From Eledone cirrhosa (lineage: Eukaryota): a DNA stretch of 64,000 bases. Under the pieces are notes generated by a model, which saw nothing but the letters and a program-made list of their open reading frames with translations, was not told the DNA's origin and searched no databases. The stretch lies in NCBI GenBank assembly GCA_964016885.1, contig CAXHJY010000523.1, positions 191,424 to 255,423 on the forward strand, given 5' to 3'. The translations under genes and the position numbers were made by a program. Shown in pieces: positions 9,001 to 61,559 of the stretch; position 1 is the first letter of the stretch, and every line of letters begins with the position of its first letter.

Positions 9001-12000
9001 ACACTAGTTGACAGTAAGACACACACACACACAGGCTGAATATCCACAGTGACACTAGTTGACAGTAAGACACACACACACACAGGCTGAATATCCACAG
9101 TGACACTAGTTGACAGTAAGAAACACACACACACACAGGCTGAATATCCACAGTGACACTAGTTGACAGTAAGACACACATACACAGGCTGAATATCCAC
9201 AGTGACACTGGTTGACAGCAAGACATACACAGGCTGAATATCCACAGTGACACTAGTTGACAGTAAGACACACACACACACAGGCTGAATATCCACAGTG
9301 ACACTGGTTGACAGCAAGACACACACAGGCTGAATATCCACAGTGACACTAGTTGACGGTAAGACACACACAGGCTGAATATCCACAGTGACACTAGTTG
9401 ACAGTAAGACACACACACACACAGGCTGAATATCCACAGTGACACTAGTTGACAGTAAGACACACACAGGCTGAATATCCACAGTGACACTAGTTGACAG
9501 TAAGACACACACACACACAGGCTGAATATCCACAGTGACACTAGTTGACAGTAAGACGCACACAGGCTGAATATCCACAGTGACACTAGTTGACAGTAAG
9601 ACACACACACACACACAGGCTGAATATCCACAGTGACACTAGTTGACAGTAAGACACACACACACACACACACACACAGGCTGAATATCCACAGTGACAC
9701 TAGTTGACAGTAAGACACACACACAGCCTGAATATCCACAGTGACACAAGCTGACAGTAAGACACACACACACAGGCTGAATATCCACAGTGACACTAGT
9801 TGACAGTAAGACACACACACACAGACCGAATATCCACAGTGACACTAGTTGACCGTAAGACACACACACACAGGCTGAATATCCACAGTGACACTAGTTG
9901 ACCGTAAGACACACACACACAGGCTGAATATCCACAGTGACACTAGTTGACAGTAAGACACACACACACAGGTTGAATATCCACAGTGACACTAGTTGAC
10001 AGTAAGACACACACACACAGGTTGAATATCCACAGTGACACTAGTTGACCGTAAGACACACACACACAGACTGAATATCCACAGTGACACTAGCTGACTG
10101 TAAGACACACACAGGCTGAATATCCAGTGACACTAGTTGACAGTAAGACACACACACACAGGCTTAATATCAACAGTGACACTAGTTGACAGTAAGACAC
10201 ACACACACAGGCTGAATAACCATATTGACACTAGTTGACTGTATCACACACATACGGGCTGAATATACACAGTGACACTAGTTGACAGTAAGACACACAC
10301 ACACTCAGGCTGAATATCCACACTGACACTAGTTGACAGTAAGACACACACATACACAGGCTGAATAACCACAGTGACACTAGTTGACAGTAAGACACAC
10401 ACACACACAGGCTGAATATCCACAGTGACACTAGTTGACAGTAAGAAACACACACACACAGGCTGAATATCCACAGTGACACTAGTTGACAGTAAGACAT
10501 ACACAGGCTGAATATCCACAGTGACACTAGTTGACAGTAAGACACACACACACACAGGCTGAATATCCACAGTGACACTAGTTGACAGTAAGACACACAC
10601 ACACACAGGCTGAATATCCACAGTGACACTAGTTGACAGTAAGACACACACACACACAGGCTGAATATCCACAGTGACACTAGTTGACAGTAAGAAACAC
10701 ACACACACACAGGCTGAATATCCACAGTGACACTGGTTGACAGCAAGACACACACAGGCTGAATATCCACAGTGACACTGGTTGACAGCAAGACATACAC
10801 AGGCTGAATATCCACAGTGACACTAGTTGACAGTAAGACACACACACACACAGGCTGAATATCCACAGTGACACTGGTTGACAGCAAGACACACACAGGC
10901 TGAATATCCACAGTGACACTAGTTGACGGTAAGACACACACAGGCTGAATATCCACAGTGACACTAGTTGACAGTAAGACACACACACACACAGGCTGAA
11001 TATCCACAGTGACACTAGTTGACAGTAAGACACACACAGGCTGAATATCCACAGTGACACTAGTTGACAGTAAGACACACACACACACAGGCTGAATATC
11101 CACAGTGACACTAGTTGACAGTAAGACGCACACAGGCTGAATATCCACAGTGACACTAGTTGACAGTAAGACACACACACACAGGCTGAATATCCACAGT
11201 GACACTAGTTGACAGTAAGACACACACACACACACACACACACAGGCTGAATATCCACAGTGACACTAGTTGACAGTAAGACACACACACACACACACAC
11301 ACACACAGGCTGAATATCCACAGTGACACTAGTTGACAGTAAGACACACACACAGCCTGAATATCCACAGTGACACTAGTTGACAGTAAGACACACACAC
11401 ACACAGGCTGAATATCCACAGTGACACTAGTTGACAGTAAGACACACACAGGCTGAATATCCACAGTGACACTAGTTGACAGTAAGACACACACACACAC
11501 ACAGGCTGAATATCCACAGTGACACTAGTTGACAGTAAGACACACACAGGCTGAATATCCACAGTGACACTAGTTGACAGTAAGACACACAATTACACAC
11601 ACAGGCTGAATATCCACAGTAACACTAGTTGACAGTAAGACACACACAGGCTGAATATCCACAGTGACACTAGTTGACAGTAAGACACACACACACAGGC
11701 TGAATATCCACAGGGACACAAGCTGACAGTAAGACACACACACACAGGCTGAATATCCACAGTGACACTAGTTGACAGTAAGACACACACACACACAGAC
11801 TGAATATCCACAGTGACACTAGTTGACAGTAAGACACACACACACAGGCTGAATATCCACAGTGACACTAGTTGACAGTAAGACACACACACACAGGTTG
11901 AATATCCACAGTGACACTAGTTGACAGTAAGACACACACACACAGGCTGAATATCCACAGTGACACTAGTTGACAGTAAGACACACACACACAGGCTGAA

Positions 12001-15000
12001 TATCCACAGTGACACTAGTTGACAGTAAGACACACACACACAGGTTGAATATCCACAGTGACACTAGCTGACTATAAGACACACACAGGCTGAATATCCA
12101 GTGACACTATTTGACAGTAAGACACACACACACAGGCTTAATATCAACAGTGACACTAGTTGACAGTAAGACACACACACACAGGCTGAATAACCACATT
12201 GACACTAGTTGACTGTATCACACAAACACAGACTGAATATCCACAGTGACACTAGTTGACAGTAAGACACACACACACTCAGGCTGAATATCCACACTGA
12301 CACTAGTTGATAGTAAGACACACACACACACAGGATGAATATCCACAGTGACACTAGTTGACAGTAAGACACACGCACACACAGGCTGAATAACCACAGT
12401 GACACTAGTTGACAGTAAGACACACACACACACAGGATGAATATCCACAGTGACACTAGTTGACAGTAAGACACACACACACAGGCTGAATATCCACAGT
12501 GACACTAGTTGACAGTAAGACACACACACACAGGCTGAATATCAACAGTGACACTAGTTGACAGTAAGACACACACACACACAGGCTGAATAACCACAGT
12601 GACACTAGTTGACAGTAAGACACACACAGGCTGAATATCCACAGTGACACTAGTTGACAGTAAGAAACACACACACACAGGCTGAATATCCACAGTGACA
12701 CTAATTGACAGTAAGACACACGCACATAGGCTGAATAACCACAGTGACACTAGTTGTGAGTAAGACACACACACACAGGCTGAATATCCACAGTGACACT
12801 AGTTGACAGTAAGACACACACACACAGGCTGAATATCCAGAATGACACTAGTTGACAGTAAGACACACACACACACACACACACACAGGCTGAATATCCA
12901 CAGTGACACTAGTTGACAGTAAGACACACAATTACACACACAGGCTGAATATCCACAGTGACACTAGTTGACAGTAAGACACACACACACAGGCTGAATA
13001 TCCAGAATGACACTAGTTGACAGTAAGACACACACACACACACACACACACACGCAGACTGAATATCCACAGTAACACTAGTTGACAGTAAGACACACCC
13101 AGGCTGAATATCCACAGTGACACTAGTTGACAGTAAGACACACACACACAGGCTGAATATCCACAGTGACACAAGCTGACAGTAAGACACACACACACAG
13201 GCTGAATATCCACAGTGACACTAGTTGACAGTAAGACACACACACACAGACTGAATATCCACAGTGACACTAGTTGACCGTAAGGCACACACACACAGGC
13301 TGAATATCCACAGTGACACTAGTTGACCGTAAGACACACACACACAGGCTGAATATCCACAGTGACACTAGTTGACACTAAGACACACACACACAGGTTG
13401 AATATCCACAGTGACACTAGTTGACAGTAAGACACACACACACAGACTGAATATCCACAGTGACACTAGCTGACTGTAAGACACACACAGGCTGAATATC
13501 CAGTGACACTAGTTGACAGTAAGACACACACACACAGGCTTAATATCAACAGTGACACTAGTTGACAGTAAGACACACACACACAGGCTGAATAACCACA
13601 TTGACACTAGTTGACTGTATCACACACATACGGGCTGAATATACACAGTGACACTAGTTGACAGTAAGACACACACACACTCAGGCTGAATATCCACACT
13701 GACACTAGTTGACAGTAAGACACACACATACACAGGCTGAATAACCACAGTGACACTAGTTGACAGTAAGACACACACACACACAGGCTGAATATCCACA
13801 GTGACACTAGTTGACAGTAAGAAACACACACACACAGGCTGAATATCCACAGTGACACTAGTTGACAGTAAGACACACACACACACAGGCTGAATATCCA
13901 CAGTGACACTAGTTGACAGTAAGAAACAGACACACACAGGCTGAATATCCACAGTGACACTGGTTGACAGCAAGACATACACAGGCTGAATATCCACAGT
14001 GACACTAGTTGACAGTAAGACACACACACAGGCTGAATATCCACAGTGACACTGGTTGACAGCAAGACACACACAGGCTGAATATCCACAGTGACACTAG
14101 TTGACGGTAAGACACACACACAGACTGAATATCCACAGTGACACTAGTTGACAGTAAGACACACACAGGCTGAATATCCACAGTGACACTAGTTGACAGT
14201 AAGACACACACAGGCTGAATATCCACAGTGACACTAGTTGACAGTAAGACACACACACACACACAGGCTGAATATCCACAGTGACACTAGTTGACAGTAA
14301 GACACACACAGGCTGAATATCCACAGTGACACTAGTTGACAGTAAGACACACACACACACAGGCTGAATATCCACAGTGACACTAGTTGACAGTAAGACA
14401 CACACACAGCCTGAATATCCACAGTGACACTAGTTGACAGTAAGACACACACACACACAGGCTGAATATCCACAGTGACACTAGTTGACAGTAAGACACA
14501 CACAGGCTGAATATCCACAGTGACACTAGTTGACAGTAAGACACACACACACACAGGCTGAATATCCACAGTGACACTAGTTGACAGTAAGACACACACA
14601 CAGCCTGAATATCCACAGTGACACTAGTTGACAGTAAGACACACACACACACAGGCTGAATATCCACAGTGACACTAGTTGACAGTAAGACACACACACA
14701 CACAGGCTGAATATCCACAGTGACATTAGTTGACAGTAAGAAACTCACACACACAGGCTGAATATACACAGTGACACAAGTTGACAGTAAGACACACACA
14801 GGTTGAATATCCACAGTGACACTAGTTGACAGTAAGACACACACACACACAGGCTGAATATCCACAGTGACACTAGTTGACAGTAAGACACACACAGGCT
14901 GAATATCCACAGTGACACAAGTTGACAGTAAGACACTCACACACACAGGCTGAATATTCACAGTGACACAAGTTGACAGTAAGACACACACACACACAGG

Positions 15001-15632
15001 CTGAATATCCACAGTGACACTAGTTGATAGTAAGACACACACACACACAGGCTGAATATCCACAGTGACACTAGTTGACAGTAAGACACTCACACACACA
15101 GGCTCAATATCCACAGTGACACAAGTTGACAGTAAGACACACACAGGCTGAATATCCAGTGACACTAGTTGACAGTAAGACACACACACACACAGGCTGA
15201 ATATCCACAGTGACACTAGTTGACAGTAAGACACTCACACACACAGGCTGAATAGCCACAGTGACACAAGTTGACAGTAAGACACACACAGGTTGAATAT
15301 CTACAGTGACACTAATTGACAGTAAGACACACACACAGACTGAATATCCAGTGACACTAGCTGACAGTAAGACACACACACACAGACTGAGTATTCACAG
15401 TGACACTAGTTGACAGTATGACACACAGAGTCTGAATATCCACAGTGACACTAGTTGACAGTAAGACACACACACACAGGCTGAATATCAACAGTGACAC
15501 TAGTTGACAGTAAGACACACACACACAGGCTGAATATCCACAGTGATACTAGTTGACAGTGAGAGAGAGAGAGAGAGAGAGAGGGTGAATATCCACAGTG
15601 ACACTAGTTGACTGTATCACACACACACAGGC
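1..15632. repeat. Tandem minisatellite: 37-bp core GGCTGAATATCCACAGTGACACTAGTTGACAGTAAGA + variable (CA)n, unit ~45-63 bp; runs off the left edge
   Basis: Read directly; roughly 300 units. Diagnostic variants recur with ~3297-3299 bp period (336-aa repeat ORFs at 3635, 6932, 10231). Confidence 0.98.
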
Positions 15633-26959: not shown

Positions 26960-29900
26960 ATAGCAGTATGCATTGTTGTGACACCAATACATATTGTTGT
27001 TACATCAATACATATTAGTGTTATATCAATAGATATTCCTGTCACATCTATAGATATTGCTGTTACATCAATACATATTGGTGTTACATCAATACATATT
27101 TGTGTTACATCAATGCATATTGGTGTTACAACAATACATATTGGTGTTACATCTATACATATTGGGTGTTACATCAATAAACATTGGTGTTACATCAATA
27201 AACATTGGTGTTACATCAATACACATTGCTGTTACATCAATAGACATTGGTGTTACATCAATAGACATTGGTGTTAAATCAATAGGCATTGGTGTTACAT
27301 CAATAGATGTTGGTGTTACACCAATAGACATTACTGTTAGAACAATACACATTGGTGTTACATCAATAGATATTACTCTAATATCAATACATATCATCTT
27401 TCATTAATATATATTACTGTTAGGGTGGTGGATTGGCAGTATCAGTAGAGGGTTTGACGCCATGCTTTCCAGCATAGTTACGTCCCTTTACGATCTGAGT
27501 TCAAATCCCGCCGAGGTTGACTTTGCCTTTCATCCTTACGGGGTCGATAAAATAAAGTACCAGTAATGCACTGGATAATTGCTGGCCTCGTGCCTAAAGT
27601 AGAAACAATTAATATATAATACTGTTACATCAATAGACATTGGGGTGACATCAATACACATTGGTGTTACATCAATGCATATAACTACTACATCAATACA
27701 CATTGGTGTTACATCAATAGATATTGGTGTTACATCAATACACATTGGTGTTACATAAATGCACATTGGTGTTACATCAATACACATTGGTGTTACATCA
27801 ATACACATTGGTGTTACATCAATATATATGGTGTTACATCAATACTTATTGGTGTTACATCAATACATATTGGTGTTACATAAATACACATTGGTGTTAC
27901 ATCAATAGATATTCGGTTACAATACTTATTGGTGTTACATCAATACACATTAGTGTTACATCAATACACATTGCTGTTACATCAATAGATATTGGTGTTA
28001 CATAAATACACATTGGTGTTAAATACATATTGGTGTTCCATCAATAGGCATTGTTGTTACATCAAAAGACATTACTGTTACATCAATACATATAACTGTT
28101 ACATCAATAGACATAACTGTTACATCAATAGACATTACTGTTACATCAATACATATAACTGTTACATCAATAGACATTACTGTTACATCAATACATATAA
28201 CTGTTACATCAATACATATAACTGTTACATCAATAGACATTACTGTTACATCAATAGACATTACTGTTACATCAATAGACATTACTGTTACATCAATACA
28301 TATAACTGTTACATCAATAGACATTACTGTTACATCAATACATATAACTGTTACATCAATACATATAACTGTTACATCAATAGACATTACTGTTACATCA
28401 ATACATATAACTGTTACATCAATAGACATTACTGTTACATCAATAGACAATACTGTTACATCAATACATATAACTGTTACATCAATAGACATTACTGTTA
28501 CATCAATACATATAACTGTTACATCAATAGACATTACTGTTACATCAATAGACATTACTGTTACATCAATAGACATTACTGTTACATCAATACATATAAC
28601 TGTTACATCAATACATATAACTGTTACATCAATAGACATTACTGTTACATCAATAGACATTACTGTTACATCAATACATATAACTGTTACATCAATAGAC
28701 ATTACTGTTACATCAATACATATAACTGTTACATCAATAGACATTACTGTTACATCAATAGACATTACTGTTACATCAATAGACATTACTGTTACATCAA
28801 TACATATAACTGTTACATCAATACATATAACTGTTACATCAATAGACATTACTGTTACATCAATAGACATTACTGTTACATCAATACATATAACTGTTAC
28901 ATCAATACATATAACTGTTACATCAATAGACATTACTGTTACATCAATACATATAACTGTTACATCAATAGACATTACTGTTACATCAATACATATAACT
29001 GTTACATCAATAGACATTACTGTTACATCAATAGACATTACTGTTACATCAATACATATAACTGTTACATCAATAGACATTACTGTTACATCAATACATA
29101 TAACTGTTACATCAATAGACATTACTGTTACATCAATAGACATTACTGTTACATCAATAGACATTACTGTTACATCAATACATATAACTGTTACATCAAT
29201 ACATATAACTGTTACATCAATAGACATTACTGTTACATCAATAGACATTACTGTTACATCAATACATATAACTGTTACATCAATAGACATTACTGTTACA
29301 TCAATACATATAACTGTTACATCAATAGACATTACTGTTACATCAATAGACATTACTGTTACATCAATAGACATTACTGTTACATCAATACATATAACTG
29401 TTACATCAATACATATAACTGTTACATCAATAGACATTACTGTTACATCAATAGACATTACTGTTACATCAATACATATAACTGTTACATCAATACATAT
29501 AACTGTTACATCAATAGACATTACTGTTACATCAATACATATAACTGTTACATCAATAGACATTACTGTTACATCAATACATATAACTGTTACATCAATA
29601 GACATTACTGTTACATCAATAGACATTACTGTTACATCAATACATATAACTGTTACATCAATAGACATTACTGTTACATCAATACATATAACTGTTACAT
29701 CAATAGACATTACTGTTACATCAATAGACATTACTGTTACATCAATACATATAACTGTTACATCAATAGACATTACTGTTACATCAATAGACATTACTGT
29801 TACATCAATAGACATTACTGTTACATCAATACATATAACTGTTACATCAATAGACATTACTGTTACATCAATACATATAACTGTTACATCAATAGACATT

Positions 29901-31033
29901 ACTGTTACATCAATAGACATTACTGTTACATCAATACATATAACTGTTACATCAATAGACATTACTGTTACATCAATACATATAACTGTTACATCAATAG
30001 ACATTACTGTTACATCAATACATATAACTGTTACATCAATAGACATTACTGTTACATCAATAGACATTACTGTTACATCAATACATATAACTGTTACATC
30101 AATAGACATTACTGTTACATCAATACATATAACTGTTACATCAATAGACAATACTGTTACATCAATACATATAACTGTTACATCAATAGACATTACTGTT
30201 ACATCAATAGACATTACTGTTACATCAATACATATAACTGTTACATCAATACATATAACTGTTACATCAATAGACATTACTGTTACATTAATAGACAATA
30301 CTGTTACATCAATACATATAACTGTTACATCAATACATATAACTGTTACATCAATAGACATTACTGTTACATCAATACATATAACTGTTACATCAATAGA
30401 CATTACTGTTACATCAATACATATAACTGTTACATCAATAGACATTACTGTTACATCAATACATATAACTGTTACATCAATAGACATTACTGTTACATCA
30501 ATACATATAACTGTTACATCAATACATATAACTGTTACATCAATAGACATTACTGTTACATCAATACATATAACTGTTACATCAATAGACATTACTGTTA
30601 CATCAATACATATAACTGTTACATCAATACATATAACTGTTACATCAATAGACATTACTGTTACATCAATACATATAACTGTTACATCAATAGACATTAC
30701 TGTTACATCAATACATATAACTGTTACATCAATACATATAACTGTTACATCAATAGACATTACTGTTACATCAATAGACAATACTGTTACATCAATACAT
30801 ATAACTGTTACATCAATACATATAACTGTTACATCAATACATATAACTGTTACATCAATAGACATTACTGTTACATCAATACATATAACTGTTACATCAA
30901 TAGACATTACTGTTACATCATTAGACATTACTGTTACATCAATACATATAACTGTTACATCAATAGACAATACTGTTACATCAATACATATAACTGTTAC
31001 ATCATTAGACATTACTGTTACATCAATACATAT
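26960..31033. repeat. 21-bp satellite; homogeneous core ~28076-31033 with two variants, CTGTTACATCAATAGACATTA and CTGTTACATCAATACATATAA; degenerate left flank
   Basis: Read directly; 7-aa periodicity of the 1014-aa and 997-aa ORFs. Confidence 0.97.
27423..27611 (+). mobile_element. SINE family A inserted in the degenerate part of the 21-bp satellite
   Basis: Full-length match; TAATATATA(T/A)TACTGTTA duplicated on both sides. Confidence 0.9.
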
Positions 31034-31221
31034 TGACTCCGCACTTCATGTCATAGTGCTCGGGCTGGTTTTCAGCAAGGCAGAGGGTTGGAATAACCTG
31101 GGTCAACAGGTATGAGAGTCACACTATGTCATTCAGTCAACTAACTTCATGCTATAGGAATGTTTGATCAATAGTGATTGAGAGTTATAAACCAATAAGA
31201 CTTAATTTGTGAGATCATTGA

Positions 31222-34374: not shown

Positions 34375-35174
34375 TAATACAGTTTGAATAAAAGACAGGG
34401 TGGTCATTATTGGATTGCCTGTTATATGTCTGCTTGATCGTTACTGACCTAAAGTTAAATAATTACAACATTTGAGTGGTTCTACTTTGTCCTAGCATCC
34501 TTTCAACTAACTCAGTCCAGTTAGTCAAACATAGCCAGCCAGCCAGCCAACTAACCAACCATCCCACTATCCAACTACCCCACCAACCAGACCAACCAAT
34601 CAACCAACCATCCAACCAGTCAACTAACCAACCAACCAACCAGCCAACACACCAGGCAACCAGCCAGCCATCTACCCAACCTTCCTTAACTTCAATCCAC
34701 TAACAACTAGTCCCCCACCAAATAATTGTTTCTACTTTAGGCACAAGGCCAGCAATTACCCAGTGCATAAAGTACCAGTAATGCACTGGGTAATTGCTGG
34801 CCTTGTGCCTAAAGTAGAAACAATTATTTGGTGGGGGACTAGTTGTTAGTGGATTGAAGTTAAGGAAGGTTGGGTAGATGGCTGGCTGGTTGCCTGGTGT
34901 GTTGGCTGGTTGGTTGGTTGGTTAGTTGACTGGTTGGATGGTTGGTTGATTGGTTGGTCTGGTTGGTGGGGTAGTTGGATAGTGGGATGGTTGGTTAGTT
35001 GGCTGGCTGGCTGGCTATGTTTGACTAACTGGACTGAGTTAGTTGAAAGGATGCTAGGACAAAGTAGAACCACTCAAATGTTGTAATTATTTAACCTTAG
35101 GTCAGTAACGATCAAGCAGACATATAACAGGCAATCCAATAATGACCACCCTGTCTTTTATTCAAACTGTATTA
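34375..35174. repeat. 800-bp near-perfect palindrome (394-bp arms, 12-nt spacer)
   Basis: Identical 75-aa ORFs on opposite strands (34476 +, 34846 -); one mismatch seen between the arms. Confidence 0.97.
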
Positions 35175-40967: not shown

Positions 40968-41484
40968 CATATACACACACACACACACATATGTATATAT
41001 AGGCCTTATAAAACCTAGTAAATATATTTATTCTGTCTGTTCTTTTAGCCAAATTATATTGTTCTCTACAAAATATTAGATATGTGGTTTCCTATATTAT
41101 CGGCTGTGTGCAAGCGCTCTGAGGTCATGGATTTTTAGCTTCAATTCTCTCATTGAGTGATCTAGAGCCTTATGATCCTTACATATCGATGATGTGCTCC
41201 ATCATCAGCTTTTAAAAAAAATAATATATCATACACAAAACGCCAGCATCAACAGTTTTCCAAGAGATGGTAACATGAATCGACCTGTTATTTTTCTCTA
41301 AAAAATGTTTTCTGTTTCCACCATCTTTTTATTTCTTCTTTAATTTCTCATTCTTTCTTCTGATGAAAGACTACTTTCTACTATATCAAGCATAAAGCTA
41401 ATAATATATTTTTTTTATTGTACTGTGTTATTTGCTTTGTTATACTTATATATATATGTGAGTGTGTGTGTGTATATATATATA

Positions 41485-41791
41485 TATAGAATGGAAAACG
41501 AAAAATCAGTGATGCATCGGAACTCAATTTATTGTGGGTTACAATTGTTTCCCCGGCGAACAGCTTGAGGTGCGATCTGTGTGTGGATCAACCTGACTCT
41601 AGACGCGCAGGTTCCTCGGACACATCTATTGATTTCGGAGCATATCCTCTTCCATGGAAGAGGATATGCATGTCTAGAGTCAGATCGATCCACACACAGA
41701 TCGCACCTCAAGCTGTTCGCCGGAGAAACAATTGTAACACACAATAAATTGAGTTCTGATGCATCATTGATTTTTCGTTTTCCCTTCTATA
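41485..41791. mobile_element. Fold-back element with ~120-bp arms, a 30-bp central palindrome and a hammerhead-like motif (Penelope pLTR-like)
   Basis: Arms 41485-41604 and 41672-41791; perfect palindrome GCATATCCTCTTCCATGGAAGAGGATATGC at 41640-41669; left end abuts (TA)n. Confidence 0.75.
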
Positions 41792-42102
41792 ATACTCTGC
41801 TCCGTAGGAGTATGGAGTGCTCAACCGGCATGTTGCCTATGGAAGCATCTTAGCTACCATTAGACATATATATATATATGTATATATATATATGTATAAT
41901 ATATAGTTATATAGTTGTGGATACAAACAAAAGAAAAGAGCAATCAACATATCATGTAGAATTTGAGTAATTATGTTAACAATTTTACTTATCTCTGCTT
42001 AACCATAAGTTTCCATAGGTTTCAGGATGCAAGCATGTTTTAATCTTGAAACCACTGTTAGTATGGAGTTGTTAAACTATATATATATATATATAGTATA
42101 AT

Positions 42103-42307
42103 CAAAGTTTCATACACTTAATATGTATGTGCTACCAATGGTTTTGGGGTCCAGTCATGGCTAGCACTGTATAATGGGGGAGGCACTTTTAAACTGACCC
42201 TTTATTCAGGCACATGGAAAGAAATATTTCTCCATTATACAGTGGTGGCCATGACTGGATCCCAAAAACCATACATAGCACATGCATGTTAAGTGTATGA
42301 AACTTTG
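42103..42307. repeat. Inverted repeat with ~75-bp arms (MITE/fold-back)
   Basis: CAAAGTTTCATACACTTAA...CACTGTATAATGG pairs with CCATTATACAGTG...TTAAGTGTATGAAACTTTG. Confidence 0.85.
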
Positions 42308-42415
42308 TTTACATTAAAATAAGCTCTCTTCCAACAGATCGGGCACTGTTTTCATTGATCTTTCATCTATGAATTTCTACCAATGTATATATATAAAATA
42401 TATATATATATATAT

Positions 42416-42524
42416 AATTGTCTCTACTTTAGGCACAAGGCCAGCAATTACCAGTGCATTACTGGTACTTTATTTTATCGACCCCGTAAGGATGAAAGGC
42501 AAAGTCAACCTCGGCGGGATTTGA
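42416..42524 (-). mobile_element. SINE family A, 5'-truncated
   Basis: Matches the 3' half of the consensus. Confidence 0.88.
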
Positions 42525-43071
42525 TATATAATTTGATATATAATATACATACACCATTAATCTGTTTCTTTCATATCTGGTGAAACTCGCTATTACCAGC
42601 TAAACATGCATATATGTAGGAGAAAGTCATGTAGATATGTACATATAATCATATAAACACACACTCATACATATTTATACTTTCATATAAATATAGATAC
42701 AAATATCATGTGTGAAGCTCAAATTTTCGAACTTAAGAAAGCACAGAGAAAATAAATTTATAAGATGCAGAAAATAGTTGCAATTACAGTCAGTTGCTAT
42801 ATAATAGCTAATAAAAGAGCAAAGACCCTTAGATGGAAAAAATGTCAGCAGCCTCTACAAAGAATTGAACTCAATATCTGGGAGACACAGACTTTGATTC
42901 TTCATAGCAGCCACTAGCAATATTTTTTCCATCCAAAAAGGGTCTTTACCTTATTTTTGTAACCTATTTTACTGACTGTAATTGCTGTTATTTTCTGTGA
43001 TTGAGCTTCCAACAACTTATATACTTCGCCCTTTCTCTGGAAATCTTTTACATGTAAGGTATATATTATTT

Positions 43072-43154
43072 GTATTTAATCGATTCTGAGGAAATTATTC
43101 TAAGATGGGATATTCTTGTTAGTCTAATGAAATGGTTGTAAATAAATTAAATGC
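43072..43154 (+). ncRNA. Type I hammerhead ribozyme motif
   Basis: GTATTTAAT-CG-ATT CTGAGGA A ATTA...TAAT GAAA T GGTT G TA AAT-AA-ATTAAATGC: intact core and extended stem I. Confidence 0.6.
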
Positions 43155-44210
43155 TTTAATTAAAATCCTTGTTAATATTTATTCTTTATATATAAATATA
43201 TGTGTGTGTGTGTATATATATATATATGGTGGCTGCCAACTCATTTTCGAGTACGGCTACTACTTTATATCCATGTAGGAGAACCCCTACTGATGCGCTG
43301 AACGAGTGTGACTTTTTAGTTCAGCCAGCGACTAGAAAACTCTGGTACAAACACTACACTTGTGACAATTACTGACACATAGTGCTGGGCCCATGGTACC
43401 ATGTGATGACAAGTGCAGAGAGATCTCCAGATATAAAGCAATACCTGTGCCGTGAAGCTTTTATAGTGAGCAAAGGCACTGCACAAAGCCAGTCCCACTC
43501 TCTTAACCAAGATGATATTTACCAAAAAGAAGAACAAGTCAACATCATTGGATACTATCAGGGTTGCAGGTGTTATATCAGAGTTTTCCTTCTATAATTC
43601 TGCCTTGACAAAGGCTAAGGGGTCATCTCTCCCGGTGATTTTGGATGGCCATTGACTCTTAAGAGCTCCTTTGTCTTTGACAGGTTTTGTTTTTAGTCCT
43701 GCAGGATGTCCAAAGTCACCCTCCTCACCAAGAAACCTTGGTGGGATTGCCAGTTTAGTCGCCAATGACCCGACTATGAGACAGGTTGTACTGGGATACA
43801 TGTTACCAGTAGCACCAACTGGTGACCTGACATACTATATATATATATTTACATGCATACATACATATATATATATGTGTGTGCATACAATCACTTGTAT
43901 GTTCATTTTTGAACCTAAACAAAATGGCGGTTCTAACGGTTTATAACTTGAACCTTTTTAATATCAAGATTCCACCTTAACTGTAGGTCTATTACTTTGG
44001 TGATGTGTTTTGATTTTTGAGTTAATATGTTATAAATCTTTCTTTCGGCTCTGTTGAGAATACTAAATCACACATTTTTTTCTCCTGTACTGATATCGAT
44101 TTTTAATCAGTATTCATATCATCTATGTGCATATCAAGGATTTAGTGTTTGAAACAAATTGAATTAAAAATATATGTATTCATAAATCACTGTTATTCTC
44201 TCCAGCATTC

Positions 44211-44384
44211 AGTATCAGTAGAGGGTCGGACGCCATGCTTTGACGCATAGAGTTACGGCCCTTGCCATTCTGAGTTCAAATCCCGCCGAGGTTAACTTTG
44301 CCTTTCATCCTTACGGGGTCGATAAAATAAAGTACCAGTAATGCACTGGGTAATTGCTGGCCTTGTGCCAAAAGTAGAAAAAAT

Positions 44385-44386
<2 letters not shown>
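44211..44386 (+). mobile_element. SINE family A
   Basis: Match to the family consensus. Confidence 0.9.
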
Positions 44387-44415
<29 letters not shown>

Positions 44416-44497
44416 TATGTATTTCTGTAGAAAAGGTAAAGGAAAGAAGAATGCTCTATGTATAGTACAGAGCTATTCAATTGTTTATTATGTAATT

Positions 44498-44533
<36 letters not shown>

Positions 44534-45083
44534 CATATCGTAGGTCCTCAACACTTGATATAATTATAAGTGCGCTATTGTGACGAACTGTGCACCTGTT
44601 TTTTCTATGTCACGGTTGCATGCCAGATCTTGTGTCACTACTTATAATTTGCCTGTCTATCTTTTACTTTGACTGCCTCTCTTTCTCTCCCCCTTCCCAA
44701 TTCCCTGTCAAATAGTCTTTGCAAGGTGACTGCATTGCTTAATCTGACTATACTATATCACGTTTCTTTTCGTAACTATAATGAGGTCTTGAAGAAGGTC
44801 AGTGTGGTGTTGAATTTTTTTGAAGACCTGTTTGTTTGTGAATATATGAGATACATAAGATATGGTAGCATCACATTCTTAGTGCCTTATCTTTCTCTGT
44901 AGTGAGGTTCCATTTTCTCTCAATTTTCAATTAATTTTGAGAATCATAAAAAAATTGTAAAAATTTAATAAAATAATTAGCCTTTTCTCTGTTAAGATGA
45001 CGTTTGGAACATTACTTAACAGCAATTTCTTTTTTTTTTTAAATGTTGATGGAAGATTTTAATATCAATTTGAATATGTTTAA

Positions 45084-45301
45084 CCCTTTAGCATTTACAT
45101 TACTCTATATTTACTATTGTATTTTCATGATAAACACTTTATCTCACATAATTATCTCACATAATATCGAATCTACAGGATTTTGATATCTATTTTTAGA
45201 TGAATACCTTAAAATAAGTATGAGCAGTCAGTTATGGCCAGTTTGAACAGAAAGAGGTGAGAGAATTCTGGCCAGATATGGCCAGTTTAAATGCTAAAGA
45301 G
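45084..45301. mobile_element. TTAA-flanked MITE, family 1
   Basis: Homologous to 32738-32958, with TTAA on both sides; nested in a family-2 remnant ending ~45363. Confidence 0.85.
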
Positions 45302-45913
45302 TTAAATGGAGAGTTTTGTACCATAAAAGCAGGATGGTTTTAGGGAGTTTTGTATCAAAAGGGTTAACCATTTTAATTATCATAATTTGAATGAAATGCA
45401 CTTCCTATGTGTTTTAAATAATTTTGAAATAATCAAGAATTTGGAGGGAAATATCTAACTTTGAGATTTGGAACATAACAAAAGTTCTTACATAGAAATT
45501 ATGATGAAACGTTTTTTGCTAAATATAAACAATTTGAAATAAAAAATGTTGTATTATAGAATCATGAACGACCTCAGGCAGGTTAATAAACATCAACTGC
45601 TACATACACTATGACAGAATAAAAATAGAAAGGAAACAAAAAACAGTAAATTTTATCTGAAAAACTGATAAGCTGGCAGAAGTGTATTAACTGAAATATT
45701 TACATTACAGCGTTACCTGGTTTTGAAATAATCTTTTAACCAGTTATATTATGTGTAAGATAGACAAATGTTTAGTAGGCCACAATTTCTGCACATATAA
45801 TATATATATCATGGTGATATACACAGACACACCCATATACATATACATATACATATATATATATATAAACAAGCAGTCAACAGTTTAAAATTAACTTTGT
45901 TTATTCATATTTG

Positions 45914-45970
45914 CTGTTATATATATTTCGGTGAAAGCCATTATACAACAGCTATGCCCTCATCAGACAG
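45914..45970 (-). ncRNA. Minimal type I hammerhead ribozyme motif, canonical core
   Basis: Minus strand: CTGT CTGATGA GG GCAT AGCTGTT GTAT AATGGCT TTCA CC GAAA T ATAT A TA ACAG. Confidence 0.75.
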
Positions 45971-46875
45971 GTAGAATCTGAACAGAAAAGACAGAAAAAA
46001 ATTAACGATGGCATACAGCTTACTTCTGTTATTTCGATTTTTTTATATGCTCCGTGCTGAATTTTGGTGTTGTTTTCTCAAGGTACCGGTATATACATAT
46101 ATATATATTATGAGATACAAATACATCTAGAAAATAAGTTTGGTTATTTGGAAGCCGGACAATGCATGTGAGATATAAGTGCCAAGGTAATAAGAATTTG
46201 AGAAAATAGATAAAGAAAAGAAAAAACAAAAGAACTGAGATAAAACAGTGAGAACGATAGAAAGATACCATAGCAATTTTAATGATCCCAAATATTTTTG
46301 GATTTACCATCCATTATCAAGGGAAGTGCGTGGGGTCAGGGGAGGCTCAGAGAGAAACCTGAGAAATGTCGCGGGTGGCTGTTCAATTTAATTTTTTAAA
46401 AATATATATATATATATATCCATATGTGGTTCTTGTCTGATGACCCTGAGATAAGCAGGAGGAATATGTTCTAAATACAAAATAATACTGGTGTTAAAGA
46501 GAGAAACACTTTTTATGAATGAAATTTATAACCGGAAACAAATTTTCTAGATCTCTCAACTGGAAACGAATTTTCTAGATCTCTCAGTTCTCATAGTGTA
46601 AGCTTAAGTTGTTCTTTGAACAAAACTATCTCGGTCACATACATGTCCTTAGCCATCCAACAAGCTTGGTGGGGAGGTAAGCTCCTGAAACTGAGAAGGA
46701 GAATTTGGGGAAATGGCTAACCACTAAGATATTGAAACAATTGTAATATGCAAATTAAGTTTGTATATATGTTGCAACACTGACTTTGACTCTTTTAAAA
46801 CTCTGTCTATATATATATATATAAAGGAAATGAATACAAAGAGTTTAAAACCGTTAAAACATGTTTATATAATTG

Positions 46876-46918
46876 TGCACCTACGTACGTTTCGCCCTGA
46901 GCAGACTTATCAAGGGCA
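46876..46918 (-). ncRNA. Minimal type I hammerhead ribozyme motif, U3-A8 variant
   Basis: Minus strand: TGCCC TTGATAA GTC TGCTCAG GGC GAAA C GTAC G TA GG(T)GCA. Confidence 0.7.
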
Positions 46919-46958
46919 TGGAAAGCAAAATAATGTTCAATATAGGACATTATTTTGC

Positions 46959-46999
<41 letters not shown>

Positions 47000-47233
47000 A
47001 TTAGGTATCAAGAGAGAGAAGAGAATGGAAAGATGGTCGATACATTTATTTAGTTGCCAATAGTTTATGCATGTGTGCTCAATACTCGTGCCTACAGGGT
47101 TAAATATTAGAGGCGTCAATATTTAGTGGGCGAGAAAAAATAAGCAGAGCGATTATAAAGGAAATGAATACAAAGAGTTTAAAACTGTTAAAACATGTAT
47201 TTATAATCATATATGTGTGTGTGCATGTGTGTA

Positions 47234-47670
47234 TATCATTATCATTTAACATTCATTCTCCCTTCTAGCAAGAGTTGGATGGGTCTTCACAGACTGAGTA
47301 AGTACTCAAGCAGGGCTACTGACCTCTCAGATAGGTCAGGGTGCTGCATCGCCCATACATATGATCCTGCACTCAACAAAGTGCATTTTATCCTGATACC
47401 AACACTAAAGAAGCTATCATGTTTCTGACACAACTGAAGGGTCCTCCTGGCCATTTGTTTGGCAAGCTTTCTATGGCTGGATGCCCTTCCTATCACCAAC
47501 CATTTTACAGTGTGGACTGAGTGCATTTATTGTGTAGATGACCAATATATAAGATGATGTTCTGCAGCTGACACAATTAAAGGTCTTCTTGACCTTTTTT
47601 GGCATAGTTTCTAGAGTTGTATGCCCTTCCTATCACTAACCATTTTACAGGGTGTAATGGGTGCACCAGA
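47234..47670 (-). mobile_element. Decayed RTE/SINE-B 3' tail fragments
   Basis: ATCATTTAAC start and two GGATGCCCTTCCTATCAC-type motifs. Similar remnants at ~38642-38920 and ~60889-61135. Confidence 0.65.
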
Positions 47671-50230
47671 GAGGCTGTTAGTCATTGTTTCAACTGACGA
47701 GCCCTCTCTGCCCTACTGGAGATGGGACGAAAGAAAGGTAGATAAGTGTGATCTTATGAGTGTATGACAAATATGGTTGTATTTGACAGGGTAGGAAGAA
47801 GGAGCAACCTCAGATAGCGTAGGTGTATCAGGACTGTAAGGGTGGGGAAATGTAGTAATGGCAAGAATAGCTAAGGAGGGATATTGAAAGGAGCATGGAT
47901 GGGGTGGGGAGAGATTTTGGTTGCTTCTATCTCTAAAAATAAAAATAAAAAATTATTGAGTGATTTCTAATAAAAACAAAACACACTATTACAGGGAACA
48001 AAGGAGGAGATGAAAATAAGAAAAAGAAAACAAAAGGATAAAACAATGAAAGAAAGAGAGGGGGAGGAGCAGACACTACACCCCAGTCTAAGCAGTGCCA
48101 TAGCCACACCCTGCAGAGAAAATGGCAAATGCGTTATGTCAGAGAATGGCCAGAGACACCTGCTGCAACAGTCACCCCACTTCACAGGGCTCCCTTTTCA
48201 AGTGAGCTGCTATCTTTCCAACTTTACGGAAGAAATCATCAGTGCGGGGGACCAAGGATGCCAAAGATCTTGACAGCAGACAAATTATTTTTGGTTTTAT
48301 AGTTCTGAGATTAAATTCTGCTGAGGTTAGCTTTGTCTTTTATCCTCCTAAGACTGATAAATAAAGTACCAATGTAGGGAGGTGCAGTGATGGAATCGGT
48401 TTTTGTTCATTAGCTATCGTCTGCTTTCAAAATATCACAGCTTGTCTAACTAGTATTCCTATGATCAAAGGCATTCAAGCTGGTACCATCTTACATATTT
48501 TCATTCATATGGTTGTGTATGTAAATATACTTTAGTTGTAGAAGTGACATCCTCCACTACCAACTAATTTGCCATCCGCCTCTGGGTCTCAGCCGACAGA
48601 ATGGAGAATGAATTGCCCTAGAGGACAGTGAGGGAGACACACTGAAACAGCCACTCCACGAGTTCCAATAACACCCTTGTCCATTTTGGGTGATGGATTT
48701 AATCTATTACCCAGTTTTACCACCTGGCCCTTGGATGTATTTAGCAGACTTTCAACAACATGGATTCTAATCAAGTAAATTTACAAGCCAACATAAATCA
48801 ATCATATTTTCTTCATTTTGCAACTTTTTTTCCTGGATTTGCCAATACCAATAAGTGGTTGCATGGCCTACTAAAAATAGCAGCCACATTTCCTTCCAAT
48901 TGCATCATACTATCTTGAAAAATGAAGGGCACACTGGACAGTGTAATACTTGAATGTATTCCATTTAATTGGTTATAAATCTGCTTGAAGAAAACTGTAA
49001 GGAACTAAAAACAATAGCAACACCTACCACAACTTTCACCGTACCACTAGTAGAACAACTATCACTACTACTACCTCTCCACCACCAGCGTCACCATCAC
49101 CACCAACACTGCTACCACCACCAGCTTTACTGCCCTCATCACCACTACCAACATTACCAACCACAGCATCACTACCACCATTACCAACACCAACATCACA
49201 CTACCACCACCACCATCACCAGCATTATTAGTATTTTCAAGAGCAACTGTTAAAGCCATCACTTGTTGTACCCACCTGACAGGAAACTTACCATTGAATC
49301 TGCTGTCCATCAAACTACCACCCTACCATGTATTTCCCTCTCTTACTTCTTCCTCCAACTCCACTTGAAATCTTCAGAAGAAAACCAAAGAGGGAGTGAA
49401 GGAAGGAAGCTGTAGTGAAATACTTACTTACACTCTGCTGACAAGAGGAGTGTCACTCTAGAAAGTGAGCAAGTTGCTTATTTCCCCTCTCTACTATATA
49501 TTTTAAGGACCTGCTGTTTGTCTTCTCAGGTTTCAATTCATTCAAGGTGTCTAGTTTAAACACTCCCTCACCACCACCATCATTCCTACCATCCAACCAG
49601 GTCTTCCTGACTCTTTCTCTCCCTGCTCACTCTCATCTAAATTGACCTACCACCCATCTCCCTTTAAACACTCACAGCAAAGCCCTTCACAGAGCCAGCT
49701 CCCTTCAAGATAACTGGTGTCAATGACCCCACTAATTACTTTATGACAGAACAAGCATTCCTGTCAAGCTCCACATTCCCAAGATGCAGATACCAAGAAA
49801 ATGGAGGAATTATTTTAGGCCATGGCTATAGCCAAATAATATTATGTGTCTGTCTGTATATTATACTAGCAGTGGTACCCGGCGTTGCATGGAATAAGGT
49901 ATTTTGGAACGTGGGCCGCCAACTCTCTCTCTCTATCTATATATAGATAGAGAGACGGTGAATTGGCAGAGTCGTTAAGACATTGGATAGAATACTTTAT
50001 GGTATTCATCCCACCTCATTGCACGCTGAGAGTTCTTTGCCTTTCATCCTTTCGAGGTCGATAAAAAAATACTAATCCAGTACTGGAGTTGATTCTTCCT
50101 CTATAGAAAAAATCAGCTGTGTTCAGATCTGGAGAAAGAGTCGGATTCCTCCAGGTTCAAAAGGGCCCTAGACATGCCATATGATGGGGTCCTACGATTC
50201 CACAAGGAGTTATGGGATCTTTATTATATA

Positions 50231-50870
50231 CTAGCAGTGGTACCCAGCATTGCACAGGATAAGGTATTTTGGAATGTGGGCCGCCAACAGACCTAATTGT
50301 CGAAAAGCTGCATGCCTGGATAATATGTAAAGAAAATAAACCAAATACTCTGATGGCTGGATAATCTTTAAGATTTTCCTCGATGAAGCAGGAAAAATGC
50401 AGGTTTTCACCTAATGCGGGCCCTAGGGATCAAGAAAAGGAATTTTTTTTATGTGCATAATATGCCTTGAAATTTCAGGAAAATCGGCTAAACCTAACGC
50501 CTCAAAAAAGCCCTAAAAAGCTGAAAAAATGAAGTTTTTCACCTAATGTGGGCCCTAGGCCATAAAAAAGTTGGATTTTCTTTGCTAACAGTATGAAGAA
50601 GAGACTGACTAATACATAGTTACAATTTCAAGGAAATCAGTCTGACGTAACACCTAAAAAAAACAACTAAAAAGCTGAAAAAACGCGCAGTTTTTCTCCT
50701 AATGAGGGCCCTAGGGGATCAAAAAGTTGAATTTCTTTATGTGCATAACACTCCCTCAAACATAAGTAATACACATGTAAAGTTTGAAAAAAATCAGTTG
50801 GGTACTTCTCGAGTTTTAGGGATTCAAACACAGAGAGAGAGAGAGACAGACATCCTCAGTTTTATATAGA
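50231..50870 (-). mobile_element. Non-autonomous Helitron
   Basis: On the minus strand: 5' TC(TATATAAAACTGAGGATGTCTGTC) and 3' subterminal hairpin followed by CTAG; internal GGGCCCTAGG-containing subrepeats. Confidence 0.75.
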
Positions 50871-51454
50871 CATATTTTTTTTTTTCCTTAAAAAATGTAG
50901 AAATCTTTAATGCTGAAAATATATCTAGTTAGATTTTTTGTAGCGGCTGCTGGCCATTTTTTTTTACATTTATAGAAGTATTTTACCCAATTTTCTACAG
51001 TTATTTTCAGTATTTGAAATGTCTATCTACTCAGGAATGGTGGAACGGAATGGAGGGGGGAGGGGGGGACTGTCCCCAACTCCAAAAAAATCTACCAAAA
51101 CACACATCTATTTGTTTGTATATGCACTACAATCTATGTACATGTTATGTTTATCACATATCAAAGATTTTTTTTATATCTTGGTTGATAATTGATATCA
51201 ACTAAACTAATCACTACAACTAAATTGACCAAATTTGCCCCCCCCCCCCATTCAGAAACGCTTCCACCGCCCCTGTATATATATATATAAACAAGTGTTA
51301 GGTAGGTAGATAGGTAAGATACACATAGAGAGGTGAATATATCTAGATATATAGAGAGACATTGAGATTCATGTTTTGGTATTGTTGGCAAAACTGTTAA
51401 CCCTGTTTTTGTATTATGACCAGTAACTGTTCATTTGTTGTTGTTATTACCATA

Positions 51455-51642
51455 GGGCGGTGGATTGGTAGTATCGGTAGAGGGTTGGATGACATGCTTT
51501 GCAGCATGGAGTTACAGCCTTTTACGGTCTGAGTTCAAATCCAGCCAAGGTTAACTTTGCCTTTCATCCTTACAGGGTCAATAAAATAAAGTACCAGTAA
51601 TGCACTAGGATAATTGGTGGTTTTGTGCCAAAAGTAGAAACA
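51455..51642 (+). mobile_element. SINE family A with TSD GTTATTACCAT
   Basis: TSD at 51443-51453 and 51643-51653. Confidence 0.92.
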
Positions 51643-51832
51643 GTTATTACCATGGTTGTTTTTGTTGTTGATATTGTGTTAATGCAGTGGTTCCCAAAGT
51701 GGGTTCCACAAAGGAGTGAAAAAAGGTATAGGAGTATATTTATATTATGACTATATAATAGTATTAGACTTTGGGGTTCCCTCAAAAGTTCTAAACAAAA
51801 AGAGTTCTGTGTTTGAAAACGTTTCAACTTAA

Positions 51833-52042
51833 CCCTTTAGTATTCACATTACTCTATATATACTATTATATTTTCATGGTAAACGCTTTACCTCGCATAA
51901 TTATCTCACATAATATCGAATCTATGAGATTTTGAAAGTATTTATTTTGAGAACGATACCTTAATATCAGTATGAGTGGCCAGTTTCAACAGAAAGTGAT
52001 AGAGAATTCTGGCCGGTTTTGACCGGTTTGATCATTAAAGGG
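51833..52042. mobile_element. TTAA-flanked MITE, family 1
   Basis: Homologous to 32738-32958, with TTAA on both sides. Confidence 0.85.
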
Positions 52043-54548
52043 TTAATGAAAGTAAGTGAAAGGAGTGGACAGTCCAGATTACTTTAAAATGCAATATTTA
52101 AAGACCTGTGACTATTTTTATTGATTTCTCAAAAAAAAAAGAAGTGATTTTCGTAATTACCATGCAAAACTACATCAGTGTTGAAATTTACAATAAAAAG
52201 AAGCAATCAAATGCTGCATACCAAAAAGAAAATATCTCAGGAGGTTTTATAAGGCCATTAGTTGCATATTTCTCTGTAGTTGATCTCTGCTATTGACATC
52301 CACTGATGAGGTCACAATAATGCCTGGAAATTAGTTAAACATGTTTCAATCTATGGGTGAAATACATAAATTTAACTTGTTTACATACCTCAGTGTGTAT
52401 GTGCATGTGTGTTTGTGTGTGTGTGTGTGTGTTTGTGTGTGCATATTCATAGATAATCCTATACTGCATATGTTCATATCTATATTTATCATGTGTATAT
52501 TTGTGTGAGCGCATGTACATTCATAGATAATCGTTGTATATGTTCAGATATATATTTATGTGCATATTTGTGTGAGTGCATGTGTGTGTGTGTATTAAAT
52601 ATAAATATAATACACACTTAATCCATCAGTTGACATATTGCAAAAAAAAACCATTACCCATGATTTTCAAATATTTGAAGGAATTTAATAATATAATTAA
52701 TTTTCTCATTATTAAACTGTTGTTTCAAAGCTTCTTATTATGATGGAAGGGTTTTTTTTTTTTTATATAAATATAAACAGCTTTATATAAGAGATCTGAG
52801 GCAGTTGTATCTATTTGAAATACAAAGGGCCAAGTATTGTATGCAATCAATAGTTTGATTTCCGAAGATGGTTCCATCCACTTTAACCCTCATATGTAGA
52901 CCTTTTTAAGTGCATTTTTTCAAGTTTATAATACATATATTTTTACAACTCTTTATAAAATAAAAATAAAATTAGTTTTCCCTCTAACATAGCAGATATG
53001 TAAATGCATTGTGTGTTTTATATCGAATAATGATAATATTTGAATTAACAAGCCTGTTTTAAAATATATTCTGCTAAATCATTAGATGTTAAAAAGTAAA
53101 TTAAGATTTTAGGTGGGATAGTAGTGTGGGTGATGTGGTGGTGGAATGGGACTCCAGGCACCAGTATGATTTATGCCTCCTACCCACTTTTACTCTCATA
53201 GTCAATGGGTAAGATAATCCTGGCATCAGCTGTGCACTGTAAATTAGGGTGTTTCACTAACTTCTAATATTTTTTATTCCTTTCAACAGTGACATAATGT
53301 TGTTATGTTGTGTGTCACTTGGAATGATGTATTGGTTGTGGCTCTTGTTAATTTAACCCTTTTGATGCCAAACCACCTTAAACTGCCCTCCTCACCCCCA
53401 CCACTGTTCTATGATACTCAACTGTTTATTCAAGAATGTTTATTATTATCTAAAAAAAACTTCCATCATAATTTTATGTAAGAATTTTTGTTTAACTATA
53501 TCTAAACAACTTAATAATAAGAAATTTAGTTATATTATTAAATCCATTAAACTTCTTGATTATTTTCAAGATAATTTGAAAGCAACAGGCAATGACTTTC
53601 ATTAGAAGTATAATAACGAACGGGTTAACCTCCAAGCTAGCCCTGATTCAACTGACTGATGAAGAAAAGCATTCCAGCCATGACCATCCACTTTTATTCA
53701 GGCATAGTGTGTATCCCTGTTTTTAGAATAGATACACCATATCCTTGTATGCTGTAAGACATGACTATAATGGTTGACATCAGGAAAGGCATCCACAGCC
53801 TCAAAAATTCCCATCCAACTCATGTCAAAATTGTTTGTTTTAAAATATCTAAAACCCTTTAAAAACCTATCACAATTTTATGAAGGATCTTTGTTAAATT
53901 ATGTTCCAAACACCAACTCAGTAATAAGAGAATTAGTTATATAACTAAACCCCTTGAAATTCTTGATTATTTTCCAAATTATTTGAAAACCATCAGCAGT
54001 ATCTTTTATTAGAAATATGGCAATGAAAGGGTTAACCTATTTGGTACCAGCTTGCCTGAAACCACCCTATTTCTAAGATGAAAAACTGTTTGTTTTAAAG
54101 TGTTCATATTTAAATTTAAACCTTCCATTATGGTTTTATGTAAGAACCTTTGTTAAGTTATGGTCCAAACACCAAAATTAAAATATGAAAATCATAGGTA
54201 GCATCATTTATTAGAAATTGATAACAAAATGGTGAACTTGCTGTGGCAAAGAACTTATGTTGTTGTACCAAAGTTGTAACAAAACCTGAGAACGCTGAAG
54301 ATGTCTACATGTTTATTTACTGTTGTTATTATTATTATATGCCTGTTTATATTACTGTATATATTATATGACAGAACCTGAGATATTCAATTGCACTATA
54401 TATATATATATATATAGAAAGAGAGAGAGAGAAAGAGAGAGACAGTGAATTGGCAGAGTCATTAAGACATTGGATAGAATGGGCCCTAGACATGCCATAT
54501 GATGGGGTCCTACGATTCCACAAGGAGTTATGGGATCTTTATTATATA

Positions 54549-61337: not shown

Positions 61338-61559
61338 TGTATTTCATGAAAGGTTTCTTGGGTGTTTTAATGATAGGAGACCCATTATATATATATATAT
61401 ATACATGGTGGCTGCCAACTCGTTTTCGAGTACGGCCACTACTTTATATCCATGAAGTAGTGGCCATACTCGAAAACGAGTTGGCAGCCACCATGTATAT
61501 ATATATATATAATGGGTCTCCTATCATTAAAACACCCAAGAAACCTTTCATGAGATACA
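61338..61559. repeat. ~220-bp fold-back palindrome
   Basis: ~110-bp arms with few mismatches and a ~4-nt loop at ~61448-61451; the inner arm matches 43227-43275. Confidence 0.93.

Follow-up and report, generated by a model that had tools for sequence, protein, structure and literature searches.

The window, the whole 64,000-nt stretch of Eledone cirrhosa DNA that was analysed, consists of AT-rich, repeat-filled animal DNA with satellites, (TA)n runs and SINE-like repeats. An insertion at 46820-47207 carries one hammerhead motif between two copies of a terminally redundant segment. All positions are window coordinates, and the element is read on the minus strand as RNA sense. The features are listed below; X1, X2, X4 and X6 are public sequence runs introduced further on.

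46820 to 47207, minus strand: whole insertion, about 1.16 units, non-coding, 32% GC, in the order tail, body, hammerhead, tail; high read depth from other loci
47154 to 47207, minus strand: 5' copy of the redundant segment, 51/54 identical to 46820-46873; its outer end is the equivalent of 46873, 8 nt past the predicted cleavage site
46995 to 47153, minus strand: body segment after the tail, high-copy at about 47025-47150 (X1 summed depth 3466-11752 against 20.3 in bin 46684-46714)
47101 to 47125, unstranded: 9-bp hairpin where coverage of the family is deepest, from a computed fold
46951 to 46994, unstranded: probable 44-nt insert, made of a 12-nt inverted copy of the adjoining arm and (TA)16; from one X4 contig, compared by eye
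46922 to 46961, unstranded: 40-nt hairpin, z -6.46, with its outer right arm inside the probable insert
46876 to 46918, minus strand: type I hammerhead motif with U3-A8 core; stem I of 5 bp with a bulged U, stem II of 4 bp, stem III of 2 bp with a palindromic loop
46907 to 46913, minus strand: core TTGATAA, with U3 at 46913 and A8 at 46908, both kept in the X6 and X2 loose-end consensus
46881 to 46882, minus strand: predicted cleavage site after GUA, from its position in the motif
46820 to 46873, minus strand: 3' copy of the redundant segment (tail), ending 58 nt past the predicted cut at the start of a (TA)n run
46808 to 46823, unstranded: 3'-terminal (TA)8 run, likely the target of insertion and masking any target-site duplication, as judged from the sequence and the (TA)n bias of Penelope-like elements (PMC8557442, available part)

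The direct repeat described in the earlier note, 46821-46864 and 47155-47198, was recovered with 43 of 44 positions identical and a spacing of 334, and could be extended without gaps to 46820-46873 and 47154-47207 (51/54 identical). What is repeated is the stretch immediately following the predicted cut. Its placement downstream of that cut on the minus strand was as proposed; the proposed distance of about 17–20 nt had to be given up, being 8 nt with the extended repeat. Read as RNA, the insertion opens 8 nt beyond one cut-site equivalent, takes in the body and a single ribozyme, and stops 58 nt beyond the next cut. It thus holds 1.16 units with one ribozyme, and no further copy of the unit was found in the window. 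With a length of 334 nt (about 290 nt without the insert), a GC content of 0.32 and no long frame, the unit falls within the range given for non-LTR retrozymes (150-450 bp, GC <50%, type I hammerhead). Both flanks, which were inspected for a target-site duplication (a feature that exceeds 4 bp where non-LTR retrozymes have one), are TA-rich microsatellite.

The predicted minus-strand core TTGATAA is present at 46913-46907 and is surrounded by a complete type I layout. Stem I is formed by 46918-46914 with 46881-46876 (five pairs and one bulged U) and stem II by 46906-46903 with 46897-46894 (two G-C and two G-U pairs). GAAA at 46893-46890 is followed by the palindromic CGTACG at 46889-46884 and then by the GUA triplet, after which cleavage is predicted to occur, between 46882 and 46881. 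The motif comprises the type I core N3-UGA-N-N8-A ... GAA with a Watson-Crick 3-8 pair (here U3-A8), three helices, an A15.1-U16.1 pair, an NUH triplet and an open stem I. The G10.1-C11.1 pair is likewise present (G46906-C46894), and the palindromic stem/loop III reads ACGUACGU. Two descriptors, both composed after the motif had been seen, were run over 16001-64000: the strict one gave one match and none in 100 dinucleotide shuffles, the looser one two matches and none in 200 shuffles. Rfam returned no hammerhead at gathering score or among the nine matches at E<=10, and a motif with a canonical core at 45966 was likewise missed at gathering score. The nine matches themselves, to microRNA and snoRNA families, were rejected since all lay far under their cut-offs. 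The catalytic fold is disfavoured both in the monomer of this copy (-4.1 vs -12.2 kcal/mol; z 0.04) and as a dimer joined through ACGUACGU (-22.8 vs -33.1). With one ribozyme and a competing fold, the copy at 46820-47207 is probably inert.

The neighbourhood contains further sequences of interest. A second type I hammerhead lies 0.9 kb away in the same orientation (45868-45970, minus strand, core at 45966). It has a canonical C3-G8 core, a 4-bp stem I, a long decayed stem II (7/10 paired) and a palindromic loop III, and a 50-nt tail past its cut runs into (TA)n without terminal redundancy; it looks like the truncated Penelope-type 3' end of another family. The tails of the two hammerheads are weakly alike (47 of 5000 shuffles; 33.5 vs 32.0 for the best of 91 other pieces preceding (TA)n). 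CTGANGA ... GAA(A) motifs that fail the descriptor occur at +47694, +31841, +46437, +52303 and -61219, and some of these may be decayed hammerheads. The flanks at 46729-46800 and 47242-47460 derive from other repeats of high copy number; the left piece is cut at 46728/46729, where 99 X1 contigs diverge. We take these flanking repeats to resemble octopus SINE/LINE ends. Penelope elements have 5' introns. By eye, a branch-point-like CTAAT stands 14 nt 5' of TAG|G in the conserved body (47109-47093, minus strand), and GTAGGT at the cut site is a possible donor in a longer copy; both signals are weak.

Elsewhere in the window, a 49-nt satellite (about 317 copies, higher-order repeat of about 3.3 kb) fills 1-15629 and a 21-nt satellite (about 194 copies) fills 26972-31035; the long spurious ORFs of the window are due to these two arrays. 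A SINE-like repeat of about 190 nt occurs in at least 10 copies of 84-96% identity (18118, 25435, 25642, 27427, 31222, 35923, 37689, 38199, 44210 and 51460). An 802-bp near-perfect palindrome (98.8%) at 34375-35174, of otherwise ordinary sequence and centred on a SINE fragment, is either a recent fold-back or an assembly artefact. Three MITE-like palindromic elements of 214-318 bp were observed at 41485-41791, 61338-61559 and 42099-42311 (83%, 94% and 76%). A sigma-70 promoter scan gave 7 sites with 4.1 +/- 2.0 expected and was set aside as irrelevant in animal DNA.

The occurrence of the unit beyond this locus was examined with public reads and contigs placed on 46560-47460 at 80% likeness. 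Four runs were used: X1 and X2, which represent one sample; X6, which consists of RAD reads from another sample of the same organism; and X4, which carries a different organism label and may represent a relative or trace DNA. Runs X3, X5, X7 and X8 stood outside the family comparison; X4 and X5 hold small shares, X4 contributing seven pieces. In X1, summed contig depth reached 4587 and 3920 over 46839-46900 and 3466-11752 over 47025-47148, as opposed to 20.3 in the flank bin 46684-46714. Summed depth is not copy number, and these values indicate many related loci. Hundreds of X6 reads fell on the unit and none on the low-depth bin 46684-46714, and thus the unit reads stem from other loci. In the middle of the unit (46932-47024), X1 depth was low at 139-319, which is partly due to repeat masking and would likewise result from a rare deletion junction. 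The unit at 46820-47207 is a copy of an abundant high-copy repeat family. The proposal of a retroelement-type repeat family was upheld. In the deepest part of the body, 47117 is C>T in 9673 of 11310 depth (X1) and in 274 of 376 plus-oriented reads (X6); with T at this position, the arms of the hairpin at 47101-47125 are perfect complements in most copies.

Other copies also bear on the core. The consensus of loose ends behind 46897, read as reverse complement, is TTGAGAA with a GCCC/GGGC stem II. It is supported by 361 reads at an agreement of 0.96 in X6, where the RAD reads stem from few loci, and by 18 contigs at 0.7 in X2, and the 4-nt loops differ between the two. The reads behind it agree in the tail and in the ribozyme's 3' half, diverging at loop II. 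This shows that U3-A8 is kept in at least one diverged subfamily beyond the copy at 46820-47207. Fixed positions 3 and 8 combined with a changing position 7 and loop II are what the hammerhead structure predicts, and the view that U3-A8 is a compensatory change rather than random decay was accordingly upheld. Among the 40 of 253 variant positions shown, 46903 and 46905 were present and 46913 and 46908 were absent; C3 or G8 is therefore unlikely to be the majority letter, and, the positions shown being 40 of 253, a C3-G8 minority is possible. In the one X4 contig discussed below, the core letters are unreadable for a comparison of positions 3 and 8. On the RNA strand, 46903 is C in 623 of 631 depth in X1 and in all 131 plus-oriented reads of X6, while 46905 is C in 467 of 631 depth in X1 but in 3 of 131 plus-oriented reads in X6. 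Since other copies carry C at these positions, at least one stem II position of the copy studied here has changed by decay from a G-C to a G-U pair. Most family copies have a better-paired stem II.

The 40-bp hairpin at 46922-46961 is real as a structure (-16.5 kcal/mol, z -6.46, 0/200 shuffles); as a core feature of the family, however, it is probably to be discarded, a view that depends on one contig. This X4 contig (151 nt, depth 4.3) matches 46836-46939 with four differences, and its loose end corresponds to about 46944-46950 joined directly to 46995-47012 (by eye, 6/7 and then 14/18 letters, with one 2-nt gap), leaving out the 44 nt of 46951-46994. Because the contig joins both sides without this stretch, the basic unit is probably about 290 nt, an insert of 44 nt probably accounts for the rest of the 334-nt period, and the long hairpin is probably a local fold-back, all three according to this one contig. 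Two separate insertions flanking (TA)16 were ranked low, as the X4 contig is continuous across that point. The z of -3.71 for the whole-unit fold was dropped as a sign of a structured circle, since it reflects mostly the 40-nt hairpin and (TA)16.

Some copies extend beyond the 5' end seen here. One contig of X1, with a depth of 19.2, connects the body end via the tail to the ribozyme, with a joint from 47175 to 46853, 11 letters between and at least 36 letters on each side; a similar joint, 47174 to 46850, occurred in X1 and X2. These contigs show that there are copies reaching further 5' than the copy at 46820-47207. Tandem short units and a long Penelope parent, at its 5' end, would be equally expected to give such a body-tail-ribozyme joint. 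A joint from 47135 to 46850 in X6 (260 reads with two start places, RAD reads deriving from few loci) was rejected as proof of tandem units because its short side of 23 letters lies within the redundant segment, and the joint 47187 to 46865 was rejected since its short side lies there as well. No tandem array was seen at the locus or in the window.

Published systems were compared with the element on the basis of the available parts of each source. A change from C3-G8 to U3-A8 has been described as a covariation in several natural hammerheads and is reported to be active in vitro (Perreault et al. 2011, PMC3088659); the element has the same covariation, and in the available part of that paper those hammerheads are not tied to an animal short retroelement. 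About 1,300 U3-A8 minimal hammerheads in Penelope-like elements named Cercyon were reported from Schistosoma mansoni (Cervera and De la Peña 2014, PMC4209133). Cercyon hammerheads, mostly single dispersed motifs, likewise combine U3-A8 in an animal retroelement with G10.1-C11.1, and their palindromic stem III, like the one found here, implies dimer cleavage, a subject covered in a review (PMC6765202). In contrast to Cercyon, stem II here has 4 rather than 7-8 bp, no unpaired base stands between A9 and G10.1, and no RT-endonuclease ORF lies beside the motif (PMC4209133). The helix sizes (5 plus bulge, 4, and 2 plus palindrome) correspond to the canonical type I form that animals carry in tandem repeats (PMC4209133, PMC7229834) and not to the minimal form with a long stem II.

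Non-LTR retrozymes are short non-coding animal repeats with type I hammerheads that give rise to linear and circular RNA of 170-400 nt (Cervera and De la Peña 2020, PMC7229834). A preprint describes retrozymes as non-autonomous Penelope derivatives that often occur as solo monomers, and one of nine dimers tested there was cleaved (Li et al. 2026, bioRxiv 10.64898/2026.07.22.740005). The element resembles them in its non-coding unit of about 290-334 nt, GC <50%, 4-bp stem II, short palindromic stem III, high copy number and proposed mobilisation by Penelope. An 'active' retrozyme of Li et al. consists of two consecutive units, each with a complete hammerhead, whereas this locus has one ribozyme; the copy at 46820-47207 is therefore not 'active' in their sense. 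The element thus behaves like a non-LTR retrozyme monomer, and its membership of the class is unproven because the locus lacks the second ribozyme. Its U3-A8 core finds no mention in the main-text descriptions of retrozymes as available (PMC7229834; bioRxiv 10.64898/2026.07.22.740005), and the supplement of the former may show some.

Penelope-like elements target (TA)n and leave tails and inverted 5' pieces (PMC8557442). For an element of this kind from anole, reverse transcription begins inside the RNA, 3' of the hammerhead, at AT-rich nicks and leaves a 'tail', and ribozyme cleavage is dispensable for insertion in vitro (PMC11167929). Like Poseidon of Anolis, the insertion stops some tens of bases beyond its hammerhead, lies at an AT-rich/(TA)n target and has a partial-tandem layout (PMC11167929, PMC8557442). 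Unlike Poseidon, it has no ORF, and its tail of 58 nt past the cut is non-coding, whereas the anole start lies 111-118 nt into an ORF (PMC11167929). An ORF for RT plus GIY-YIG between pseudo-LTRs, a trait of autonomous Penelope-like elements, is absent from the locus. Judged by frame length, no Penelope ORF was seen nearby, the longest stop-to-stop frame in 41000-53000 being 104 aa.

The literature searched, supplements aside, yielded neither a U3-A8 retrozyme nor the family of 46820-47207 by name, nor a paper linking the C3U/G8A change to Penelope, and no paper on cephalopod hammerheads was among the matches listed. The novelty implied by the earlier note was overstated, variant and element class both being in print already (PMC3088659, 2011; PMC4209133, 2014; PMC7229834). 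Pattern scans returned 70 metagenome, one viral and four prokaryote genome loci, none of which (0/75) could be accepted as a relative: BLAST of the unit recovered only the searched 18-mer with at most 29 nt around it, at four loci. A second viral scan gave no loci. Seven of the metagenome loci (L007, L022, L039, L041, L045, L062 and L070) combine TTGANAA with a paired GCCC/GGGC stem and a downstream GGTCG/GTCG; they resemble prokaryotic U3-A8 hammerheads and are unrelated to the element.

Taken together, we favour, at a probability of roughly 0.65, the interpretation that the insertion is a partly decayed copy of a repeat that is abundant, short and non-coding and carries a U3-A8 type I hammerhead motif; it is likely a non-autonomous derivative of Penelope, comparable to the non-LTR retrozymes of animals, and a Penelope reverse transcriptase-endonuclease likely inserted it at (TA)n. 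Source copies would be transcribed as RNA longer than one unit, in which two ribozymes would pair via ACGUACGU, a palindrome of 8 nt, and cut. Reverse transcription by the Penelope enzyme would begin at an internal site of the RNA, about 60 nt beyond a hammerhead, span one unit and halt with 8 nt left to the upstream cut-site equivalent; the result would be one ribozyme and a 54-bp duplicated tail. A redundancy produced from a self-cleaved or circular monomer had been suggested. A linear monomer cut at both ends gives no redundancy; the template must therefore have held more than one unit, either as a circle or as a multimer with one uncut ribozyme. The suggestion thus holds for the more-than-unit template and fails for the linear monomer, and the end positions do not require a circle.

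A family identical in every respect but its template, a covalently closed RNA circle on which rolling reverse transcription halted after 1.16 turns, is an alternative that we regard as unlikely, though to be taken seriously. Coral, mussel and axolotl contain circularised monomers of animal retrozymes in abundance (PMC7229834, available part), a circle would supply the more-than-unit template that the redundancy demands, and helix I, whose start lies just past the stop point, could stall the enzyme. On a circle, however, the stop could fall anywhere in about 334 nt, yet it is found no more than 8 nt from the cut-site equivalent (odds of about 3 in 100 if position alone is considered, for one copy and post hoc). 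This proximity favours a linear RNA with a cleavage-made 5' end, with the proviso that it comes from one copy and that a helix I stall on a circle gives a similar picture. Rather improbable, too, is a one-off gutted Penelope: a long parent would have contributed its beginning as tail and body and its end as hairpin side and ribozyme, a template jump would have removed the ORF, and there would be no short family that propagates itself. Such a jump would be marked by the short inversion and (TA)16, inverted 5'-truncated pieces with (TA)n being typical of Penelope insertions (PMC8557442, available part); depth is high at both unit ends and low in the middle, and the body-tail-ribozyme joint fits a 5' pseudo-LTR. 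Against it, the X4 contig joins both halves at the same point without the insert; as X4 has this junction and no depth on the low-copy flank bin, the joined form itself appears to be repeated (by eye, one contig). In addition, the 4-bp stem II without an unpaired base after A9 departs from the 7-8-bp minimal hammerheads of Penelope pseudo-LTRs (PMC4209133, available part). This explanation stays live because the joint is compatible with tandem short units and with a long-parent 5' end alike.

Recombination between units of a hammerhead satellite array, with a trimmed or moved piece ending up here without reverse transcription, is very unlikely. Intra-array recombination likewise leaves one unit with a short redundancy, and retrozyme families do reach long arrays (bioRxiv 10.64898/2026.07.22.740005, available part); however, both ends of the insertion fall at ribozyme-related positions, the 3' end abuts (TA)n as does that of the second, different hammerhead nearby, and no array remnant occurs in the window. 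Least credible by far is a chance motif within a local duplication in AT-rich DNA. The missing Rfam match and a monomer fold no better than shuffles would agree with chance, but the descriptor found nothing in 200 shuffles, and core and stem II are conserved family-wide while the loop and position 7 vary, which refutes chance unless reads were mis-assigned.

With this locus, a known class gains a further host and a further family. How animal retrozymes re-enter genomes is itself a hypothesis in the available parts of the literature (PMC7229834; bioRxiv 10.64898/2026.07.22.740005), and the family provides material on the role of the hammerhead in Penelope elements and on the copying of retrozymes back into genomes. 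A stronger version of the favoured interpretation, which we put forward as speculative, is an abundant retrozyme family with fixed U3-A8 in canonical-type helices, whose 5' ends lie at the ribozyme cut and whose 3' ends lie at a Penelope internal start about 60 nt past the cut. If true, it would be genomic evidence that ribozyme cleavage determines the template's 5' end in vivo, and animal retrozymes would be moved by Penelope enzymes from linear, not circular, RNA. In a high-copy family with both ends kept, a stop at the cut site (linear) and a run past it (circle) can be told apart from an assembly alone, and the same copies also allow a test of a shared Penelope-type start at their 3' ends.
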